From the sequence record MN067430: a stretch of 39,389 bases of DNA; one strand, written 5' to 3'. A program made the position numbers and the translations under genes. Positions 2,561 through 39,389 of this stretch are shown here, one piece after another. The DNA comes from Escherichia phage vB_EcoP-Ro103C3lw. Every line of letters starts with the position of its first letter. Position 1 is the first letter of the stretch. The notes beneath the pieces are model-generated. The model had not been told where the DNA came from. It saw nothing but the letters and a program-made list of their open reading frames with translations, and searched no databases.

Positions 2561-5227
2561 ATGAGCGTCATTCAGCTTGAGAAGCATGACTTCTCGGACA
2601 TCTCCAACGCTATCGAGCCGTTTAACATTCTGGCTGACCACTACGGGCAGGACCTCGCAGTCAAACAGCTTCAGCTTGAGCATGAGGCATACACTGAAGG
2701 CGAGCGTCGTTTCATCAAGAATCTTGAGCGTCAGGCTGAGCGCGGGGGGCTGGCTGATAATCAGGTCGCAAGACCATTGATGCAAACTCTGGTCCCTAAA
2801 CTGGCGCAAGCCGTCAAGGAGTGGCACGAGACCCAAGGGTCAACCCGTGGGAAACCTCAGGTCGCCTTCCTGAAGCTGAGCACCGAGTCGAAACCTCGTG
2901 CGCTACTGGTCCAACCCGAGTCGGTGGCGGTCATCGTCCTGAAGATTGCGCTCAGTAAGCTGGTCAAGCCTGAAGGCGTACCGATAACGCCGATGGCCTC
3001 CGCGATTGGTCGCACACTGGAGGATGAAATCCGTTTCGGTCGCATCCGTGACCAAGAGCAAGAGCACTTCAAGAAGACCATCGCCGAGAACCTGAAGAAA
3101 CGCGCTGGCGTGGCCTACAAGAAAGCCTACATGCAAGCGGTCGAAGCCTCCATGCTGGACCAGAAGCAACTGGATGATGCGTGGGGGACTTGGAGTCCTG
3201 ACGAGGCGGTCCACGTAGGAATAAAGATGCTGGAGCTGCTGATTCAATCCACACAACTGGTAGAGCTGAAGCGACACAACGCTGGGAACGTAGCGTCAGA
3301 CGTCGAGATGGTCCACCTGTCAGACTTCTGGGCCAAGAAGATGGCTCAGCGAGGCTACAGCCTTGCGGGTATCGCTCCGGTCTACCAGCCGTGCGTCGTG
3401 CCTCCACGCCCTTGGAACTCAGTGGTCGGTGGTGGGTACTGGGCTAAAGGTCGCAGACCTCTCCCGCTGATGCGCTTAGGGTCGAAGGCTGCTATCGCTC
3501 GCTACGAGGAAGTTTACATGCCTGAAGTCTACGAGGCGGTGAACATCATTCAGCAGACACCGTGGAAGGTGAATAAGAAGGTGCTGGACGTAGTGAACAT
3601 GGTCGAGAAGCTGAACAATACGCCTATCGCAGACATCCCGCAGATGGACCCGATGAAGCCTGAGGAGTACGCAGGTGAGACCGAGGAAGAACTTAAAGCG
3701 TGGAAGAAAGCTGCTGCTGGAATCTATCGCCGCGAGAAGGCCCGACAGTCCCGCCGCTTGTCCCTGAGCTTCATCGTCGGACAGGCGAACAAGTTCTCTC
3801 AGTTCAAGGCCATCTGGTTCCCGTACAACATGGATTGGCGCGGTCGAGTCTACGCGGTCCCGATGTTCAACCCGCAAGGCAACGACATGCAGAAGGGTCT
3901 GCTGACTCTGTCAGTCGGCAAGCCAATCGGTGCGGACGGCTTCAAGTGGCTGAAGGTTCACGGTGCAAACTGCGCGGGTGTCGATAAAGTCACCTTCGAG
4001 GAGCGCATCAAGTGGGTCGAAGACAACCACGACAACATCCTCGCGGCTGCTAAGAGTCCGATGGATAGCATCGACTGGTGGGGCAAGTTAGACTCTCCGT
4101 TCTGCTTCCTCGCGTTCTGCTTCGAGTATGCCGGGGTCATGCACCACGGGCTGAGCTACTCCTGCTCACTGCCTATAGCGTTCGATGGGTCCTGCTCTGG
4201 GATTCAACACTTCAGCGCGATGCTCCGTGACCACGTTGGTGGACATGCGGTCAACCTAACGCCAAGCGGGAAGGTCCAAGACATCTACCGCATTGTGTCC
4301 GACCGGGTGGAAGAACAGCTTAAGGAACTACTGGTAAACGGTAGCGACAACGAAGTCAAGACCTTCGAGGACAAGAAGACAGGCGAAATTACTGAACGTC
4401 TGGTCCTTGGAACTCGTGAGCTGGCCCGTCAGTGGCTGACCTACGGGATGTCACGCACGGTCACTAAACGCTCGGTCATGACTCTGGCCTACGGGTCGAA
4501 GGAATACGGGTTCGCAGACCAAGTGTTTGAGGATACCGTGATGCCAGCGATTGACAACGGCAAGGGCGCGATGTTCACGGACCCAAGCCAAGCGTCCCGC
4601 TTCATGGCTAAGATGATTTGGGATGCAGTGAGCGTGACCGTAGTTGCTGCGGTAGACGCGATGAAGTGGCTCCAAGGCGCTGCTAAACTGCTGGCTGCTG
4701 AGGTCAAGGACAAGAAGACCAAAGAGGTCCTGAAGCCTTGCCTCCCGGTTCACTGGGTCACGCCTGATGGCTTCCCGGTCTGGCAGGAGTATCGCAAGAA
4801 GGACACCACACGTCTTGACCTGATGTTCCTCGGGACTTTCCGTCTCCAGCCGACAGTCAACAAGGGGTCGAGCAAGGAGCTGGACAAGCACAAGCAGGAG
4901 TCAGGCATCAGCCCGAACTTTGTACACTCACAAGACGGCAGTCACCTGAGGAAGACTGTGGTCCACACCCACCGCAAGTATGGCGTGATGTCCTTCGCAG
5001 TGATTCACGATAGCTTCGGGACCATCCCGGCTGACGCTGAGTTCCTGTTCAAAGGTGTCCGTGAGACGATGGTCGAGACCTACCGCGACAACGATGTGCT
5101 GCAAGACTTCTACGAGCAGTTCGCGGACCAGCTTCACGAGAGCCAGCGCGACAAGTTGCCTGAGCTTCCAAAGCGCGGTAAACTGAACATCGAAGACATT
5201 CTGTTATCTGACTTTGCATTCGCCTGA
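2561..5227 (+). CDS. gp1: Single-subunit DNA-directed RNA polymerase (T7 gp1 homolog)
   Basis: 888 aa; long conserved blocks versus T7 RNAP, e.g. WFPYNMDWRGRVYAVPMFNPQGNDM, HGANCAGVDKV, PIAFDGSCSGIQHFSAML, KRSVMTLAYGSKE, NFVHSQDGSHLRKTVV, ends SDFAFA. Confidence 0.97.
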   Translation: MSVIQLEKHDFSDISNAIEPFNILADHYGQDLAVKQLQLEHEAYTEGERRFIKNLERQAERGGLADNQVARPLMQTLVPKLAQAVKEWHETQGSTRGKPQVAFLKLSTESKPRALLVQPESVAVIVLKIALSKLVKPEGVPITPMASAIGRTLEDEIRFGRIRDQEQEHFKKTIAENLKKRAGVAYKKAYMQAVEASMLDQKQLDDAWGTWSPDEAVHVGIKMLELLIQSTQLVELKRHNAGNVASDVEMVHLSDFWAKKMAQRGYSLAGIAPVYQPCVVPPRPWNSVVGGGYWAKGRRPLPLMRLGSKAAIARYEEVYMPEVYEAVNIIQQTPWKVNKKVLDVVNMVEKLNNTPIADIPQMDPMKPEEYAGETEEELKAWKKAAAGIYRREKARQSRRLSLSFIVGQANKFSQFKAIWFPYNMDWRGRVYAVPMFNPQGNDMQKGLLTLSVGKPIGADGFKWLKVHGANCAGVDKVTFEERIKWVEDNHDNILAAAKSPMDSIDWWGKLDSPFCFLAFCFEYAGVMHHGLSYSCSLPIAFDGSCSGIQHFSAMLRDHVGGHAVNLTPSGKVQDIYRIVSDRVEEQLKELLVNGSDNEVKTFEDKKTGEITERLVLGTRELARQWLTYGMSRTVTKRSVMTLAYGSKEYGFADQVFEDTVMPAIDNGKGAMFTDPSQASRFMAKMIWDAVSVTVVAAVDAMKWLQGAAKLLAAEVKDKKTKEVLKPCLPVHWVTPDGFPVWQEYRKKDTTRLDLMFLGTFRLQPTVNKGSSKELDKHKQESGISPNFVHSQDGSHLRKTVVHTHRKYGVMSFAVIHDSFGTIPADAEFLFKGVRETMVETYRDNDVLQDFYEQFADQLHESQRDKLPELPKRGKLNIEDILLSDFAFA

Positions 5228-5520: not shown

Positions 5521-5976
5521 ATGTTCAACCGTAAACTGAAAGCACGTATCGCATCTCTTGAAGCAACCGTCCAGCGTCAGGACCGCAACCTTGAGCTGGC
5601 TAACCGGGAGCACTCACGACTGAGGGCCAAGATTCAGAAGGCTGAAGAGAAACGTGAAGTCGACCCATTCCGTGTGAAGCGCATGGTCGGCCTGAAGTTC
5701 AAGGCGCTGTTCAATGGTCTATACCAGCCTACTGAGTTCAAGACCGGACCGGGGCCGTGTGGCAAGACAGTTACGCACTTCACCACGAGTCGGACCGAGC
5801 GTGAGCTGACCATCCACCAGCACCACACGGATGGCTCTCAGAAGGACTTCGAGTATCGACTGAGTGACATCGACGGTCGCATCCAGTACGACTACGAGAC
5901 CGTGCTAGTCTACGGAGAAGAGGCAGAACGGGAGCGAGCACACTACGTCTTCCTGAGACGTCAACGGTTCGCTTAA
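5521..5976 (+). CDS. Hypothetical protein, about 151 aa, with predicted coiled-coil N-terminus
   Basis: Open frame 5452..5976; ATG 5521 chosen as the most likely start (MFNRKLKARIASLEATVQRQDRNLELANREHSRLRAKIQKAEEKR); no homolog recognised. Confidence 0.5.
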   Translation: MFNRKLKARIASLEATVQRQDRNLELANREHSRLRAKIQKAEEKREVDPFRVKRMVGLKFKALFNGLYQPTEFKTGPGPCGKTVTHFTTSRTERELTIHQHHTDGSQKDFEYRLSDIDGRIQYDYETVLVYGEEAERERAHYVFLRRQRFA

Positions 5977-9912: not shown

Positions 9913-10133
9913 CCAAAGAAGTTCAGGTAGTCCGCAAGCGTCTGACCATCGACAAGATTCCGGTCGGCTATGCGTTCATCGTCCACGGTAAACCGGGCGA
10001 AGTGTACGTGAAGATTAGTAACTCTCACGTCTTCAACCACAAGTTACTTCAGATGCACACCACGGATTCCAACCGCTTCCAACGTCATCTGAATCTGGTC
10101 GCTGTAGAGCTGGTGGTGTACGATGGTGAGTAA
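9909..10133 (+). CDS. Hypothetical protein, 74 aa
   Basis: ATG overlaps the gp3 stop (ATGA); no homolog recognised. Confidence 0.5.
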   Translation: MTKEVQVVRKRLTIDKIPVGYAFIVHGKPGEVYVKISNSHVFNHKLLQMHTTDSNRFQRHLNLVAVELVVYDGE

Positions 10134-12734: not shown

Positions 12735-12899
12735 ATGCTACGAAAACTTAAAGTCCGCTACCACACGTTCATGTACAAGTGGTGGAGCGAGGAGGCCGAC
12801 TGCCTGTCCCAAATCCTTGGAGACCAGCGGTTCAAGTCGAAGGCGTGGAAGCGCGCCAACCAGAAGTTCATGTATCACTTCCTGCGCATTGACTATTAA
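12735..12899 (+). CDS. Hypothetical protein, 54 aa (gene 4.3/4.5 position)
   Basis: SD ggagag before ATG 12735; basic and Trp-rich; not in the ORF track because it is under 60 aa. Confidence 0.4.
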   Translation: MLRKLKVRYHTFMYKWWSEEADCLSQILGDQRFKSKAWKRANQKFMYHFLRIDY

Positions 12900-12917
12900 T
12901 CCCTCACTGTAGGATAG
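12895..12917 (+). promoter_or_regulatory. Phage RNAP promoter, variant
   Basis: ctattaatccctcactgtaggat; +1 G at 12912. Confidence 0.65.
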
Positions 12918-12972
12918 ACTCAAGGCCATTCACATCGAGTGGTCTTTATGATTAGACTATAGGAGATTAACC

Positions 12973-15144
12973 ATGATTGACTTACAGAACATCTGGGGTT
13001 CTGACATCGAGACTAACGGTCTCCTTGACACCGTGTCCCAGTTCCACTGTGGGGTCCTGATTAACGCCGAGTCGAACGAGACCCTGAAGTATGGGGTGGT
13101 GCCGATGGTCGGTATCGTCGGCGGCTTTAAGGAGTATGTGGAGAAGGTCGAGCAGATTGCCGCGACTCCGCATGGACTGCTGGTCTTCCACAACGGTATT
13201 AACTATGACGTTCCAGCGATTGACATCCTGAAGCGTAAATACTTTGGCAAGCGTTTCAACTTCCCGAAACAGAAGATGATAGACACGCTGGTCATGGGAC
13301 GACTGATGTATCCGAACATCAAGTTCTCGGACATGGGCGCTGTGAAAGCTGGCCGTCTGCCACCTAAGATGATGGGACGCCAGTCGCTTGAAGCGTGGGG
13401 CTATCGTCTCGGTGAGATGAAGGGTGAGTACAAGACCGATTACATTGCCAAGTGCAAGGCCGAAGGTATCGACTATAAGGCTGGGGACGAATGGTTGTTC
13501 CCTAGCCAAGAGATGCTGGACTATAACGTCCAAGACGTTGTGGTCACACTGGCCCTGTTCAAGAAGTTCCTGACCGACCAGTTCTACTTTGGGTCTCCTG
13601 AAGCAGGACTTTGGGCTGTGTACGCATTGCGTCTCGAACATGATGCTGCATGGACCTGTGCGAAAATGGAACGCAACGGCTACCCGATGAACTCGGAGAT
13701 AGTCGAAGGCTTGTATCGTGAGCTGTCCATAAAGCGTGCTGAGCTGCTGGATAAACTTCGGTCAACCTTTGGTAGCTGGTATCAGGCCAAGGGCGGTAAG
13801 GAGTTCTTCAAGCATCCTCGGACTGGCGTGGACCTGCCGAAGTATCCACGAGTCGTGTACCCGAAGGTCGGGTCCATCTTCAAGAAGCCGAAGAACAAAG
13901 CTCAACGTCTTGGACTTGAGGAGTGCGAGCGCGACTCCCGCGATACTATGGAAGGCGCACCGTTCACACCTATCGAGTACGTTGAGTTCAATCCGGGGTC
14001 CGGCGACCACTTAGCTAAAGTCTTGATGGACCGTGGGTGGGAACCTACAGAGTTCACTGAGACTGGTAAGCCGAAGTGTGACGACGAGGTGCTGGAGAAC
14101 GTGCATCTGGCAGACCCTGAGGCTCAGGCTTGCGTAGAGCTGGTCCGTGAGTATCTGGTAGTCCAGAAGCGCATCGGTCAGGCGGCTGAAGGTAAGAACG
14201 CATGGTTGAAACTGGTGGGTCCAGACGGAAGGATGCACGGGTCGATTAACCCCTGTGGTGCTGTGACTGGACGTGCGACCCATAGTTCACCGAACATGGC
14301 TCAGGTCCCGGCTAACGGTGCTCCTTGGGGTGAAATCTGCCGTAGCGCCTTTGGTGCTCAGTGGAACAAGAACCACGGGAAGTCCGAGCCGTGGATTCAA
14401 GTTGGGGTGGATGCCTCAGGTCTTGAACTCCGCTGTCTGGGGAACCGAGCGTCTCCGTTTGATGGTGGTGCTTATGCGACCACGGTTGTCGAAGGTGACA
14501 TCCACTGGGCCAATGCGGTCAACGCCGGATTAGCACCTGACGTCAAGCGCGATAAGTCCAACCACGACCATGATGCTTTCCGTAACAACGCCAAGACGTT
14601 TATCTATGCGTTCCTGTATGGTGCAGGGGCCGCTAAGATTGGACTGATAGTCGGCGGTGGGAAGAAGGAAGGTTCAGCCCTGATGAAGAAATTCATTGAG
14701 GGTACACCAGCTATCAAGGACCTTCGAGAGGCTGTGCAGAACACGCTCATCTCCGAGTCCAAGTGGGTAGACGGTGAGAACATCGTGAAGTGGAAACGCC
14801 GATGGCTGAAAGGTCTGGACGGTCGCCGCATTCACATCCGGTCCCCACACTCAGCACTTAACGCCCTGCTTCAGGGTGATGGTGCAGTGGTCTGCAAGCA
14901 CTGGATAGTCGAGACCGAGCGTATGCTTGAAGAAGCTGGCTATGTCCACGGCTGGGAAGGTGACTTTGCGTACATGGCTTGGGTCCACGATGAGCTGCAA
15001 ATTGCGTGTCGTACTCAGGCGATTGCCGAAGAAGTCGTCAAGATTGCTCAACTTGCTATGCGTAAGGTGGGCGAGTTCTATAACTTTAAATGTGTCCTTG
15101 ATACTGAAGGTAAGATTGGACCAACGTGGAAGGAGTGTCACTAA
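12973..15144 (+). CDS. gp5: DNA polymerase, family A (T7 gp5 homolog)
   Basis: 723 aa; SDIETNGLL (exo motif I), VFHNG.NYDVPA, AWGYRLGEMKGEYK, YNVQDVVVT, GAVTGRATH, DASGLELRCL, NAKTFIYAFLYGAGAAKIG, MAWVHDELQ, ends GPTWKECH. Confidence 0.97.
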   Translation: MIDLQNIWGSDIETNGLLDTVSQFHCGVLINAESNETLKYGVVPMVGIVGGFKEYVEKVEQIAATPHGLLVFHNGINYDVPAIDILKRKYFGKRFNFPKQKMIDTLVMGRLMYPNIKFSDMGAVKAGRLPPKMMGRQSLEAWGYRLGEMKGEYKTDYIAKCKAEGIDYKAGDEWLFPSQEMLDYNVQDVVVTLALFKKFLTDQFYFGSPEAGLWAVYALRLEHDAAWTCAKMERNGYPMNSEIVEGLYRELSIKRAELLDKLRSTFGSWYQAKGGKEFFKHPRTGVDLPKYPRVVYPKVGSIFKKPKNKAQRLGLEECERDSRDTMEGAPFTPIEYVEFNPGSGDHLAKVLMDRGWEPTEFTETGKPKCDDEVLENVHLADPEAQACVELVREYLVVQKRIGQAAEGKNAWLKLVGPDGRMHGSINPCGAVTGRATHSSPNMAQVPANGAPWGEICRSAFGAQWNKNHGKSEPWIQVGVDASGLELRCLGNRASPFDGGAYATTVVEGDIHWANAVNAGLAPDVKRDKSNHDHDAFRNNAKTFIYAFLYGAGAAKIGLIVGGGKKEGSALMKKFIEGTPAIKDLREAVQNTLISESKWVDGENIVKWKRRWLKGLDGRRIHIRSPHSALNALLQGDGAVVCKHWIVETERMLEEAGYVHGWEGDFAYMAWVHDELQIACRTQAIAEEVVKIAQLAMRKVGEFYNFKCVLDTEGKIGPTWKECH

Positions 15145-15428
15145 TGGCTATTACTAAACGCCTGAGCTGTAAGTTCGACCTGAAGATTGTCTTTACGTCC
15201 GATGACGTAGAGGCCTACGCTCGTGAGCTGGTCCAGATGTCTAAGGACTATGTGTCCGGTGAGAAGCAGGATGGGCTGACCCGCAAGCTGGTGGAAACTG
15301 CGGTGGAGCATGGGGTCGAAGCTGCCATTGAGCTGCACCTGAAGTCAGTACTGGGGTCCAAGCTGAAAGATGAGCTGCCGGAAGATGGAGCGACCCTCTC
15401 TAACATCAGCGTGGGGTTCAAACGATGA
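15144..15428 (+). CDS. gp5.5: gp5.5-like protein (T7 gp5.5 binds host H-NS)
   Basis: 94 aa; MAITKRLSCKFDLKIVFTSDDVEAYARELV resembles the T7 gp5.5 N-terminus (MAMTKKFKVSFDV...); ATG overlaps the polymerase stop. Confidence 0.6.
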   Translation: MAITKRLSCKFDLKIVFTSDDVEAYARELVQMSKDYVSGEKQDGLTRKLVETAVEHGVEAAIELHLKSVLGSKLKDELPEDGATLSNISVGFKR

Positions 15429-15634
15429 GCGAATACTTACGGGTCCTTGCGGCCCTTAAGTCCTGCCCGAAGACCTTCCAGTCCAACTACGTGCGCAACA
15501 ATGCGTCACTGGTGGCTGAGGCTGCGAGTCGCGGACATCTGAGCTGTCTGTCTATGGACGGACGTAACAACGGTGCGTGGGAGATTACAGCTGCTGGCAC
15601 CAAGTTTCTGAACGAACACGGAGGCTGTCTATGA
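15425..15634 (+). CDS. gp5.7: gp5.7-like protein
   Basis: 69 aa; KSCPKTFQSNYVRNNASLVAEAASRGHLSCL...GAWEITAAGTKFL is near-identical to T7 gp5.7 as recalled. Confidence 0.8.
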   Translation: MSEYLRVLAALKSCPKTFQSNYVRNNASLVAEAASRGHLSCLSMDGRNNGAWEITAAGTKFLNEHGGCL

Positions 15635-15906
15635 GTCAAGCACCTTTGGATTTTCTGGGCCAACCTATCGAGGTAGGCGATAAGTTTGTCTACGCTGAAG
15701 CTGGCGGTCGGGGCGGTTCTATGGCCCTGCACAGCGGGGTTGTTACCCGTATGACGGAGAAGCAGGTCCTTGTTGGGAAGACGTGCTGGGGCCAGACTTG
15801 GCGTCCCTTTAACTGCATCGTTATTGTCGAGAAGTGTGGACCGGACGAGGAGCCTCTGTTGGGAGCGACCTTAGCTATGGCTAAAGGAGGTCTACGCGAT
15901 GAGTAA
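15631..15906 (+). CDS. Hypothetical protein, 91 aa
   Basis: ATG overlaps the gp5.7 stop (ATGA); no homolog recognised; occupies the gp5.9 position. Confidence 0.5.
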   Translation: MSQAPLDFLGQPIEVGDKFVYAEAGGRGGSMALHSGVVTRMTEKQVLVGKTCWGQTWRPFNCIVIVEKCGPDEEPLLGATLAMAKGGLRDE

Positions 15907-16207
15907 ACTTAACTCCTGCCTGTGCTGCGGTGTACGGATGAGCGGTGTCGAGGAATCCAATGGTCTGTTTGTGAAGGTTGTAAAACAGCTCATTAAGACC
16001 TCGCTTCGAGACAAGGACTCAAAGGCCCTCCTCATGCTGGTTCGTGAGCTGTCTGCACGTATTGACCACGGTGTTACCCGCTACAGCGAACAGGGTGAAA
16101 CCGGAAGTCTCTGCGGCTCTCAGTATGCAAACCAGATTATCACCAAGTTAATCTCCGAGGCCGCTGATGGTCTTGTACAAATCGAGGAGCACTATAAGCA
16201 TGAGTGA
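15899..16207 (+). CDS. Hypothetical protein, 102 aa
   Basis: SD aggagg before ATG 15899; contains a CLCCG cysteine cluster; no homolog recognised. Confidence 0.5.
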   Translation: MSKLNSCLCCGVRMSGVEESNGLFVKVVKQLIKTSLRDKDSKALLMLVRELSARIDHGVTRYSEQGETGSLCGSQYANQIITKLISEAADGLVQIEEHYKHE

Positions 16208-17066
16208 CAAGAAGATTGCTCTGGTTCTGGATGGCGACTATCTGGTATTCTCCTCTATGGCTGCGGCTGAAGATGAGACTGACTGGGGTGATGGCATCTG
16301 GACGCTAATCTGCGACCATGAGAAGGCTCGTCGTATCCTGAATGATGCCATCGCTCGTATCAAACGTAAGCGCAAAGCATGGGCAGACGCCAAGATTGTG
16401 ATGTGCTTCACCGACGATGTGAACTGGCGCAAGGACGTCTTGCCAACCTATAAGGCCAACCGTAAAGGTTCACGCAAGCCTGTAGGTTACAAGAAGTTCG
16501 TAGCCGAGGTGATGGCTATCCCTGAGTTCAACAGCTTCCTGCGTCCTACGCTTGAGGGTGATGACTGTATGGGTATCATCGGGACTAAGCCCCAGATTGT
16601 CGGCTGCGACCATGCGGTGCTGGTGTCCTGTGATAAGGACTTCAAGACCATACCGGGCTGCGAGTTCTACTGGCTGACGACCGATGAAATCCTGAGCCAC
16701 ACGACTGCCGAGGCAGACTACTGGCATATGGAGCAGACCATCAAAGGCGATATGACCGATGGCTACGGTGGCATTCCGGGGATGGGCGAGGACACTACTC
16801 GTGAGTTCCTGAACGAGCCATACTACTTCGTGCAGGAGACCCGTGAGCTGAAGACTGGCAAGAACAAAGGTCAGCTTAAGGTCGAGTGGAAGAAGTATCC
16901 GAAGCGCGAGGACCAGACGTTGTGGGACTGCATGGTTACACTGGCTGCTAAAGCTGGTATGACCGAGGAGGAGCTGCTAGTCCAAGCGCGAGTGGCTCGA
17001 ATCTGCCGGGCGACCGACTTCGACTTCAAGCAGAAGGAGGTCATTCTGTGGACTCCCTGCATCTAG
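16200..17066 (+). CDS. gp6: 5'-3' exonuclease (T7 gp6 homolog)
   Basis: MSDKKIALVLDGDYLVF...KAWADAKIVMCFTD..NWRK..LPTYKANRK...KPVGY...CDKDFKTIPGCEFYW....IKGDMTDGYGGIPG...GKNKGQ...TLWDC....AKAGMTEEEL; start moved to ATG 16200 to match the T7 N-terminus. Confidence 0.92.
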   Translation: MSDKKIALVLDGDYLVFSSMAAAEDETDWGDGIWTLICDHEKARRILNDAIARIKRKRKAWADAKIVMCFTDDVNWRKDVLPTYKANRKGSRKPVGYKKFVAEVMAIPEFNSFLRPTLEGDDCMGIIGTKPQIVGCDHAVLVSCDKDFKTIPGCEFYWLTTDEILSHTTAEADYWHMEQTIKGDMTDGYGGIPGMGEDTTREFLNEPYYFVQETRELKTGKNKGQLKVEWKKYPKREDQTLWDCMVTLAAKAGMTEEELLVQARVARICRATDFDFKQKEVILWTPCI

Positions 17067-17187: not shown

Positions 17188-17210
17188 AATAAACCCTCAC
17201 TATAGGGATT
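17188..17210 (+). promoter_or_regulatory. Phage RNAP promoter (gene 6.5 position)
   Basis: aataaaccctcactatagggatt; +1 G at 17205. Confidence 0.8.
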
Positions 17211-17273
17211 TTGGACCAAAGATAAGACTATAAGATAGACTTAAGTCTTAACTTAAAGAGAGGAGACGTAACG

Positions 17274-39198: not shown

Positions 39199-39389
39199 TC
39201 TCACAGTTCAAGAACCTCAAGTCTCCCCCCATAGGGTCACTCTCAGTCAGACCAAAGGCCCTACCCCTAGACCGAAGGTCTAAACCTAAAGTCTTTGACC
39301 AGAAGTCAGGACCAGAAGTCTACCTCAAGGGCCTATATCTAGTGGTTGGGACCAGAGGTCGGGACTATATGTTGTGTCACTGAGTCTCT
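39199..39389. repeat. Right direct terminal repeat (DTR), 191 bp
   Basis: Exact copy of 1..191. Confidence 0.95.

Follow-up and report, generated by a model that had tools for sequence, protein, structure and literature searches.

The genome of Escherichia phage vB_EcoP-Ro103C3lw (sequence record MN067430; hereafter the window, meaning the whole analysed stretch of 39,389 nucleotides, nt) contains two adjacent open reading frames (ORFs), ORF A and ORF B, which together occupy the exact position of gene 5.9 of phages T7 and T3, between the gene for gp5.7 and gene 6. With a probability of roughly 0.55, we consider them to be two unrelated, non-essential accessory genes lying in a hypervariable "gene 5.9 slot" of a T7-like phage and likely encoding binding proteins. 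T7 gp5.9 is a dimeric, acidic coiled-coil DNA mimic that inhibits RecBCD and whose parallel coiled coil is braced by an N-terminal β-sheet (eLife 2022, PMC9836394), and it was also reported as a viral DNA mimic inhibiting MukBEF (PMC7617805). A first-pass annotation, made from the sequence alone, had placed both ORFs at exactly the coordinates given below, had noted that neither resembles gp5.9, and had suggested that they replace the inhibitor with anti-nuclease or other host-interaction functions; its interpretation is partly supported, and host interaction remains a reasonable guess. The features on which the argument rests are as follows, with lengths in amino acids (aa):

15631-15906, + strand: ORF A, 91 aa (from the ORF list and the raw sequence).
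15631-15834, + strand: ORF A core, residues 1-68, predicted five-stranded SH3-like (KOW/Tudor-type) barrel with conserved GGRGG, RMTEKQ, and WRPF.
15835-15906, + strand: ORF A C-terminal tail, residues 69-91 (CGPDEEPLLGATLAMAKGGLRDE), and stop codon; contains the motif LLxATxAMAKGG and encodes the ribosome-binding site of ORF B.
15899-16207, + strand: ORF B, 102 aa, an exact match to "hypothetical protein Ro103_29" in GenBank.
15905-16205, + strand: 301-nt insertion relative to sister Kayfunaviruses, a clean gap in a three-way DNA alignment with Salmonella phage ST3.

Judged by sequence, profile, profile-profile comparison, charge, and predicted fold, both ORFs are unrelated to gp5.9 and are not DNA mimics of its type. 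No match to the gp5.9 model was obtained for ORF A or ORF B in Pfam (including PF25708, Phage_T7_Gp5_9) at an expectation value (E) ≤1, and neither matched the gp5.9 families among the PHROGs (including phrog_9014, 4790, and 6234) at E ≤0.01; these models do detect acidic variants found in the slot of other phages, with E of 4e-15 to 3e-26. Alignment of the ORF A and ORF B families with the gp5.9-family alignment by hhalign gave probabilities of 0.05% and 0.17%, and remote homology of either ORF to gp5.9 is ruled out by PF25708, the PHROGs, and hhalign together. A gp5.9 gene displaced to another place in the window was likewise ruled out, since tblastn with T7 gp5.9 against the whole window returned chance matches only, the best of which (E 0.47) lies on the opposite strand within the RNA polymerase ORF (2561-5227). 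The isoelectric point (pI) of T7 gp5.9 is 4.08, whereas that of ORF A is 5.34 (11 acidic and 9 basic residues) and that of ORF B is 6.82 (13 acidic and 13 basic residues), by which both fall outside the small, highly acidic type with a pI of about 4. Instead of a coiled-coil dimer, the AlphaFold2 monomer models present a barrel for ORF A and a hairpin followed by a three-helix bundle for ORF B. A gp5.9-like DNA-mimic mechanism therefore appears disfavoured for both proteins on grounds of charge and predicted fold. Lambda Gam, P22 Abc2, and other solved RecBCD inhibitors show no sequence or fold similarity to either ORF, and sequence searches of the PDB returned no relatives of solved structure, so that assignment of a function from solved structures was abandoned. 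The literature on Kayfunavirus or K1F in connection with RecBCD or "gene 5.9" held nothing on the question. Nothing in these analyses supports an anti-RecBCD role of either ORF, although one by a non-mimic mechanism would be possible.

The slot itself was surveyed in 63 IMG/VR loci anchored on gp5.7, in which the interval between gp5.7 and gene 6 was measured and the occupants were classed from BLAST clusters. In 62 of these loci, including T7, gp5.7 is 72-99% identical to that of the window, the last locus showing 61%. The gap ranges from 0 to 535 nt, all of which is exceeded by the approximately 569 nt of the window, and the occupants form at least nine clusters, some joined by common modules:

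gp5.9 proper: 52-55 aa, pI 4.1; 17 loci.
Acidic chimeras with gp5.9 modules: 59-76 aa, pI 4.1-4.4; 7 loci.
Acidic proteins with a CxxC...CxC N-terminus: 94-121 aa; 7 loci.
Acidic proteins of 137-149 aa: 4 called ORFs, and a fifth locus with an identical 442-nt gap.
Acidic protein related to the 137-149-aa class: 139 aa, pI 4.9; 1 locus.
ORF A type: 91-92 aa; 5 loci.
Distant ORF A relatives: 69-111 aa, pI 6.7-9.3; 5 loci.
ORF read from its sequence as an HNH endonuclease (locus L039): 128 aa; 1 locus.
Cys/His-rich ORF: 69 aa; 1 locus.
Empty, gap of 0-3 nt: 8 loci.
Empty, gap of 45 nt: 5 loci.

Thirteen of the 63 related genomes thus have an empty or nearly empty slot. Of the 24 loci with a gp5.7 identity of 87% or more to the window, eight are empty, eight encode a member of the ORF A superfamily, and eight encode an acidic protein. 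In the annotated genome of another E. coli Kayfunavirus of the same laboratory, Ro45lw, gp5.7 (15579-15788) runs directly into the exonuclease (15785-16651) and the slot is empty. Genes of the ORF A type and of the gp5.9 type never occur together in the 63 slots. Lack of gp5.9 is thus normal for the genus, and often the slot is empty or held by the ORF A family; the proposed "replacement" of gp5.9 is borne out as a statement of position only, while its premise that gp5.9 would be the expected occupant does not hold. Judged by its sequence content, the slot proves dispensable and hypervariable and appears prone to recombination. The acidic chimeras comprise proteins of 59 aa (L037, L038, L053, and L067), 66 aa (L014), 73 aa (L036), and 76 aa (L062). 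In some of them a gp5.9-like N-terminal half (...EAWNDMQAYIQSLE...) is joined to a C-terminal module FLxALRAxGVDNWxGY, and in others this module is joined to MSHLNxEDNxxAxEF, which recurs within the acidic proteins of 139-149 aa from the slot; module shuffling seems to be the way in which the gp5.9 family evolves. The idea that the "DDGF" ends of some slot proteins imitate the acidic ...DF tails found in gp2.5 and gp4 was rejected because the overlapping first codons of gene 6 determine these residues.

Residues 7-70 of ORF A match phrog_2251 (E 1.1e-17), a known though uncharacterised family with unassigned function. A translated search of 50,697 phage records found the ORF A family in 110 of them. 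Full-length members occur in 33 records, with 93-97% identity among the rows listed, from Kayfunaviruses of Salmonella, Citrobacter, Escherichia, and Enterobacter; Klebsiella phages make up about 75 records, with about 60% identity over residues 7-70, and a few records are Pectobacterium phages. Inspection of one representative per genus, namely Kayfunavirus ST3, Przondovirus vB_Kp1, and Pektosvirus PP81, places the gene between gp5.7 and the exonuclease in each, an arrangement from which the window differs by having ORF B interposed before the exonuclease. All 20 homologues considered (61-97% identity) carry the precomputed family PF23835.2 (DUF7205), but the local PF23835.1 model gave no match to ORF A itself, so its membership in the Pfam family is indirect and relies on the PF23835.2 matches of homologues with 79-97% identity. 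Nothing was found in the literature on DUF7205 or PF23835. The ratio of non-synonymous to synonymous substitution rates (dN/dS) of ORF A against four relatives is 0.01-0.05 at dS of 0.2-0.9.

The AlphaFold2 model of ORF A, computed from a 14-sequence alignment with a mean predicted local distance difference test (pLDDT) of 82.5, predicts a KOW/Tudor-like SH3 barrel. The segment VGDKFVYAEAGGRGGSMALHSGVV displays, in our own reading and not by a profile match, a KOW-like alternation of hydrophobic residues and glycines; no KOW or ProQ_C-type profile exceeds its curated cut-off for ORF A, which has zero Pfam matches. Among 12 aligned sequences of distant relatives, four give sub-threshold matches to PF24203 (Phage_ProQ_C_like), which we take to be a Tudor-like family, with a best E of 0.0019 at 19.3 bits against a cut-off of 27 bits, and one gives a match, likewise sub-threshold, to KOW2_Spt5 (PF23284; E 0.073). 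The distant relatives in the slot belong to the same superfamily as ORF A (BLAST E 1e-10 to 1e-12; phrog_2251 E 1e-21), and the basic ones among them have pI values of 8.6-9.3. Some superfamily barrels (P0017, P0018, and L013 2707-3042; 109-114 aa) bear a Cys/His-rich C-terminal extension, e.g., CQACQENDDRYGHECGKEA, which looks like a small zinc-binding tail.

The tail of ORF A is modelled with low pLDDT and contains a single predicted helix at residues 75-85. Within the family its dN is 0-0.02 at a dS of about 1, and the constraint therefore acts at the protein level. A promoter or other DNA element behind the conservation was dismissed, as synonymous sites are saturated and no promoter copy is located there. 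A C-terminal motif of the form LL(G/A/P)AT(L/V)xAM(A/S)K... is attached to at least four N-terminal domains of slot proteins that are otherwise unrelated, with variants in loci L007, L009, L012, L013, L015, L020, L022, L028, L030, and L064, and the members from Klebsiella phages have no tail altogether. The motif may serve these proteins as a common docking peptide; alternatively, recombination may just carry it along with the 5' flank of gene 6.

ORF B has a different history. The insertion that carries it is flanked by a direct repeat, ATGAGT, at 15899-15904 and 16200-16205, which represents the start codons of ORF B and gene 6, and in sister Kayfunaviruses such as Salmonella phage ST3 ORF A directly overlaps the start of the exonuclease and ORF B is absent. 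Because the insertion begins right after the ATGAGT at which gene 6 would otherwise start, ORF B takes over the ribosome-binding site in the tail of ORF A, and it brings a new one, GAGGAG, for gene 6. The family is rare: in the 50,697 phage records ORF B has one match, in Salmonella phage SSBI34 (Vequintavirinae, 141 kb; 37% identity), and a word-indexed search of 5.8 billion proteins retrieved ORF B itself and a truncated form of 61 aa only. Exhaustive phmmer against 1.84 billion representatives found three true relatives, adding to the word search two full-length proteins (E of about 1e-10) and one spurious repeat protein. The latter, P0023 (569 aa, eight matched stretches), was discarded as a tandem-repeat protein in which only the short VDHxVxRYxEQG was matched. 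A profile search added two more relatives, giving a family of about five other members; the full-length homologues are 36-39% identical and reside in unrelated phages. No match to ORF B was found in Pfam, PHROG, or NCBIfam, including the HNH and HNH_3 profiles of homing endonucleases, which often insert into T7-like genomes.

The cysteine cluster CLCCG pointed out by the first-pass annotation is real, as the N-terminus of ORF B reads MSKLNSCLCCGV and places it at residues 7-11 (nt 15917-15931, + strand). All five members that keep the N-terminus conserve C7, C10, G11, V12, and S15, whereas C9 is not conserved, with Ser in its place in the SSBI34 homologue; four of these five share a central D-x-K-x-L-L motif, and five of six members have the L71-C72 pair, which is deleted in P0027. 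As potential zinc ligands, C7-x-x-C10 (5/5) and C72 (5/6) are thus conserved, no fourth conserved ligand was found, and H57 is variable. A four-ligand zinc site in a single chain is not evident, although a metal site built across a dimer would be possible. The AlphaFold2 model from six sequences (pLDDT 81.8, predicted template modelling score 0.72) shows an N-terminal β-hairpin with the CxxC, followed by helices at 18-37, 41-54, and 75-101. Fold searches with it returned generic three-helix bundles only, and the best Foldseek match in BFVD was an unnamed viral protein of 93 aa (E 0.037).

The C-terminal half of ORF B has a dN/dS of 0.14 against a metagenomic sibling, compared with 0.13 for the flanking gp5.7 and 0.09 for the exonuclease. 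All full-length relatives, the metagenomic homologues included, lie within arrays of small ORFs without Pfam matches, and those that could be placed belong to large rV5-like myoviruses; one metagenomic contig of this kind ends in DNA matching myoviruses of the phiTE/CR3/CR9 type, of about 145 kb. We infer from the sequences that the family probably originates in the small-gene arrays of such phages, from which this Kayfunavirus lineage captured it by recombination at the ATGAGT microhomology. The only other T7-like contig with related DNA is L004 (ENA ERZ17808150 NODE_177), which retains just the 3' 57 codons of ORF B. There positions 2859-3186 hold a different 61-aa ORF of pI 4.1 (MITPRPDVPEVNLTADAVDSKALMLADLEVL...), followed by the remnant; the acidic ORF has no PHROG or Pfam match and has a DSKALML stretch in common with the second helix of ORF B. 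By composition only, this acidic ORF looks more DNA-mimic-like than either ORF of the window.

Ro103C3lw was assigned to the genus Kayfunavirus in its genome paper, which does not discuss ORF A and ORF B (PMC8303462). The first 25 kb of the window are 84-90% identical to Kayfunaviruses such as Cronobacter phage GW1, Citrobacter phage SH4, and Escherichia phage Ro45lw, and a perfect direct terminal repeat of 191 nt (1-191 and 39199-39389) identifies the window as a complete T7-like genome. The gp5.5 and gp5.7 homologues recognised in the first-pass annotation are confirmed upstream of the slot, and the neighbouring features are:

12896-12923, + strand: phage RNA-polymerase promoter upstream of gene 5, member of a repeat family with consensus TTAAACCCTCACTATAGGA; start of the transcription unit of the slot.
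12973-15144, + strand: gene 5, DNA polymerase (from the ORF list).
15144-15428, + strand: gp5.5 homologue, 94 aa; phrog_1452, "Gp5.5-like host HNS inhibition", E 4e-21.
15425-15634, + strand: gp5.7 homologue, 69 aa; phrog_1334, E 1e-38.
16200-17066, + strand: gene 6, 5'-3' exonuclease, 288 aa; phrog_107, E 9e-78.
17189-17216, + strand: next phage promoter, equivalent of phi6.5, of the same repeat family; end of the transcription unit.

Matches of the gp5.5 homologue to PF11247 (E 0.027, weak) and of the exonuclease to PF02739 (E 1e-7) stay under the respective cut-offs. The promoters belong to a direct-repeat family of nine copies, with no copy between 12923 and 17189; eleven copies of the consensus were located in the window. 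With promoters in this region only at 12896 and 17189, genes 5 to 6 are read as one unit in the order gene 5 DNA polymerase, 5.5, 5.7, ORF A, ORF B, and gene 6, transcribed, as the promoter sequences indicate, by the phage RNA polymerase. Each junction is an overlap of stop and start codons: gp5.7 and ORF A meet in ATGA, ORF A and ORF B in ATGAGTAA, and ORF B and gene 6 in ATGAGTGA, an organisation that indicates translational coupling of both ORFs to their neighbours. The Shine-Dalgarno sequence of ORF A is GGAGG (15619-15623), and that of ORF B is AAAGGAGGT (15883-15891), encoded within the tail of ORF A.

In relatives, an HNH homing-endonuclease gene is located between genes 5 and 5.5 (L001 697-1014, Salmonella phage ST3; L004 1487-1882, where the gene matches PF13392, HNH_3; L074 14621-15016, Ro45lw), and the annotated DNA polymerase of Ro45lw is split around it. 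The window is free of this insertion, as its gp5.5 gene overlaps the stop codon of gene 5. Near the left end of the window, roughly at the position of T7 gene 0.3 (Ocr), an ORF of 110 aa with a pI of 4.05 (1166-1498, + strand) is a candidate DNA-mimic anti-restriction protein by its composition and position only.

A compensation for missing gp5.9 was also sought in the sites of Chi (GCTGGTGG), of which the window contains 11, with a strong bias to the + strand, where nine of them lie:

+ strand: Chi sites at 10109, 15287, 20650, 22841, 23738, 30363, 34050, 36305, and 37880.
Minus strand: Chi sites at 5814 and 26983.

Dinucleotide shuffles predict 1.8 sites and shuffles preserving protein and codon usage about 3.4 (0/400 reach 11), so that Chi is more than three-fold over-represented. 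The count is 11 in SH4, which has ORF A only, 11 in Ro45lw with its empty slot, 12 in T3, which encodes gp5.9, and 7 in T7, where the excess is weaker (P about 0.07). Since the excess is alike in relatives with and without gp5.9, it is a general trait independent of the content of the slot, and Chi as a compensation for missing gp5.9 was ruled out.

According to our favoured explanation, the barrel of ORF A would bind a nucleic acid or a protein partner via its conserved Gly-rich and basic face (GGRGG loop, R40, K44, and R58), and its tail would act as a docking peptide common to other slot proteins. In this way ORF A would most likely modulate a host or phage nucleic-acid transaction in the DNA-metabolism phase by a means other than DNA mimicry, without being essential; the binding role is suggested by analogy. 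Recombination at the ATGAGT microhomology of 6 nt, where gene 6 starts, would have brought in the ORF B cassette, with small-gene arrays of large rV5-like myoviruses as the probable donors. ORF B itself could be a small protein that binds a host target in takeover or counter-defence, with a CxxC hairpin probably stabilised by metal or dimerisation; a host-directed role is suggested because the gene moves between phages which have hosts in common but not replication machinery. Several points weigh against this explanation. The literature offers no functional datum and no solved relative for either family; the shared position, together with the mutual exclusion of these genes and those of the gp5.9 family in the slot, could still reflect an analogous function; and in L004, the only other Kayfunavirus-type contig carrying it, ORF B is cut to its C-terminal 57 residues (within a 61-aa ORF, 84% identical), which hints at weak selection.

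The shared position leads to the idea that ORF A, ORF B, or both neutralise RecBCD, perhaps also MukBEF, by means other than mimicry, the slot being the "RecBCD answer" of each lineage; candidate modes are the binding of a RecBCD subunit, as P22 Abc2 does, or the capping of phage DNA ends. It draws most of its support from the mutual exclusion of ORF A-type and gp5.9-type genes throughout the survey. Several other occupants are clear gp5.9 derivatives, such as the 66-aa acidic protein (PF25708, E 4e-15), which would make the slot a home for RecBCD inhibitors, the position is identical to that of gene 5.9, the ORFs are transcribed together with the phage exonuclease and replication genes, and the basic relatives of ORF A have a charge (pI about 9) compatible with binding to DNA ends. 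However, 13 of 63 related genomes, including that of the E. coli phage Ro45lw, do with nothing or about 45 nt in the slot, and gp5.9 is non-essential according to T7's own annotation. Neither ORF is acidic or similar in sequence or fold to gp5.9, Gam, or Abc2, ORF B derives from phages with quite different genome biology, and the Chi enrichment is equal with or without gp5.9 and provides no compensatory signal, so that we regard an anti-RecBCD function as improbable. A more far-reaching version, in which the DUF7205/PHROG 2251 barrels are the gp5.9 counterpart in most Studiervirinae without gp5.9, acting as non-acidic RecBCD/MukBEF inhibitors or DNA-end caps with the tail as a docking peptide, and ORF B is a second, stacked counter-defence module, appears slightly less probable still. 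Alternatively, ORF A might serve the phage internally as an adaptor of the gene 6 exonuclease or the replisome in host-DNA breakdown, recombination, or concatemer processing. KOW/Tudor barrels are commonly adaptor modules, genes of the ORF A type lie always directly upstream of and coupled to gene 6 in three genera, and the tail motif is tied to the 5' flank of gene 6 and common to unrelated slot proteins. Yet gene 6 functions without ORF A in T7, T3, and relatives with an empty slot, whose exonucleases are alignable with that of the window, and the Klebsiella-phage members lack the tail; we consider the adaptor unlikely.

For ORF B, the rarity of the gene allows it to be seen as a passenger, i.e., foreign DNA caught by illegitimate recombination at the start of gene 6 that owes its expression solely to having landed in an operon, confers no benefit, and is being lost. 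The arrangement of both genes is unique to this genome in a collection of 15 billion proteins, with cluster P0001 having one member on one contig, a microhomology of 6 nt forms the junctions, and the L004 contig keeps the 3' half, as a 61-aa ORF, behind a different upstream gene. But the frame of ORF B is intact and has its own start, it uses the strong ribosome-binding site within ORF A and supplies GAGGAG to gene 6, and its C-terminal half is under purifying selection close to that of gp5.7 and the exonuclease. Moreover, the distant full-length homologues (36-39%) keep the CxxCGVxxS, DxKxLL, and LC motifs, which argues that the family is a functional protein and leaves the passenger with little, although some, likelihood. 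That one or both ORFs are merely chance open frames could be suspected from their shortness and from their annotation as "hypothetical" only; purifying selection, conserved homologues, ribosome-binding sites, and confident predicted folds speak against it, there is no room for alternative genes on either strand, and the suspicion is effectively refuted.

We therefore read the finding as an ordinary case of turnover among accessory genes at a variable position in T7-like genomes; the chance that it conceals a new host-nuclease countermeasure is modest. The "gene 5.9 position" of T7-like phages is a recombination-prone accessory slot, holding at least nine clusters of small proteins and often nothing, ORF A is placed in a defined yet unstudied family with a predicted fold, and ORF B is a clean putative case in which a gene of rV5-like myoviruses was captured at a microhomology of 6 nt. 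Should proteins of the ORF A type neutralise RecBCD, they would constitute a new mechanistic class of inhibitor, a β-barrel instead of a DNA mimic, present in at least 110 sequenced phages, with many Klebsiella therapy candidates among them. Retrons and other defences guarding RecBCD sense RecBCD inhibitors (10.1101/2020.06.21.156273), and inhibition of the ORF A type would bear on these systems as well.

The comparison with known systems underlines both sides. Like the ORFs of the window, T7/T3 gp5.9 is small, encoded in the slot between 5.7 and 6 within the same transcription unit, and overlaps the start of gene 6; recognisable gp5.9 is found in 187 phage records, which are essentially T7/T3-like and include many T7 laboratory variants. 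The ORFs differ from it in sequence and profile, in pI (5.3 and 6.8 versus 4.1), and in predicted fold, a barrel and a three-helix bundle versus a coiled coil. The closest precedent for the reasoning of the first-pass annotation is gene 0.3, which encodes the DNA mimic Ocr in T7 and a SAM hydrolase in T3. These are non-homologous small genes in one syntenic slot, and both were shown experimentally to defeat one host system. In the gene 5.9 slot, by contrast, the function of gp5.9 alone among the occupants has been tested, and the slot is often empty. With the KOW/Tudor SH3 barrels (uL24, the KOW domains of Spt5/NusG, and the C-terminal domain of ProQ), the ORF A model has the five-stranded barrel in common, whereas in ORF A the domain stands alone and is followed by a phage-specific tail, and its family's profile matches are all below the curated cut-offs. 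Compared with PHROG 2251/DUF7205, ORF A is an ordinary member in the same slot with essentially no difference. Finally, ORF B and the protein QYC52472.1 of the rV5-like phage SSBI34 are homologous over their full length (37% identity, 99% coverage) and have the CxxCGVxxSG N-terminus and the LC motif in common, while the rV5-like homologues are encoded in early-type small-gene arrays of genomes of about 141 kb and ORF B in the replication operon of a T7-like phage.

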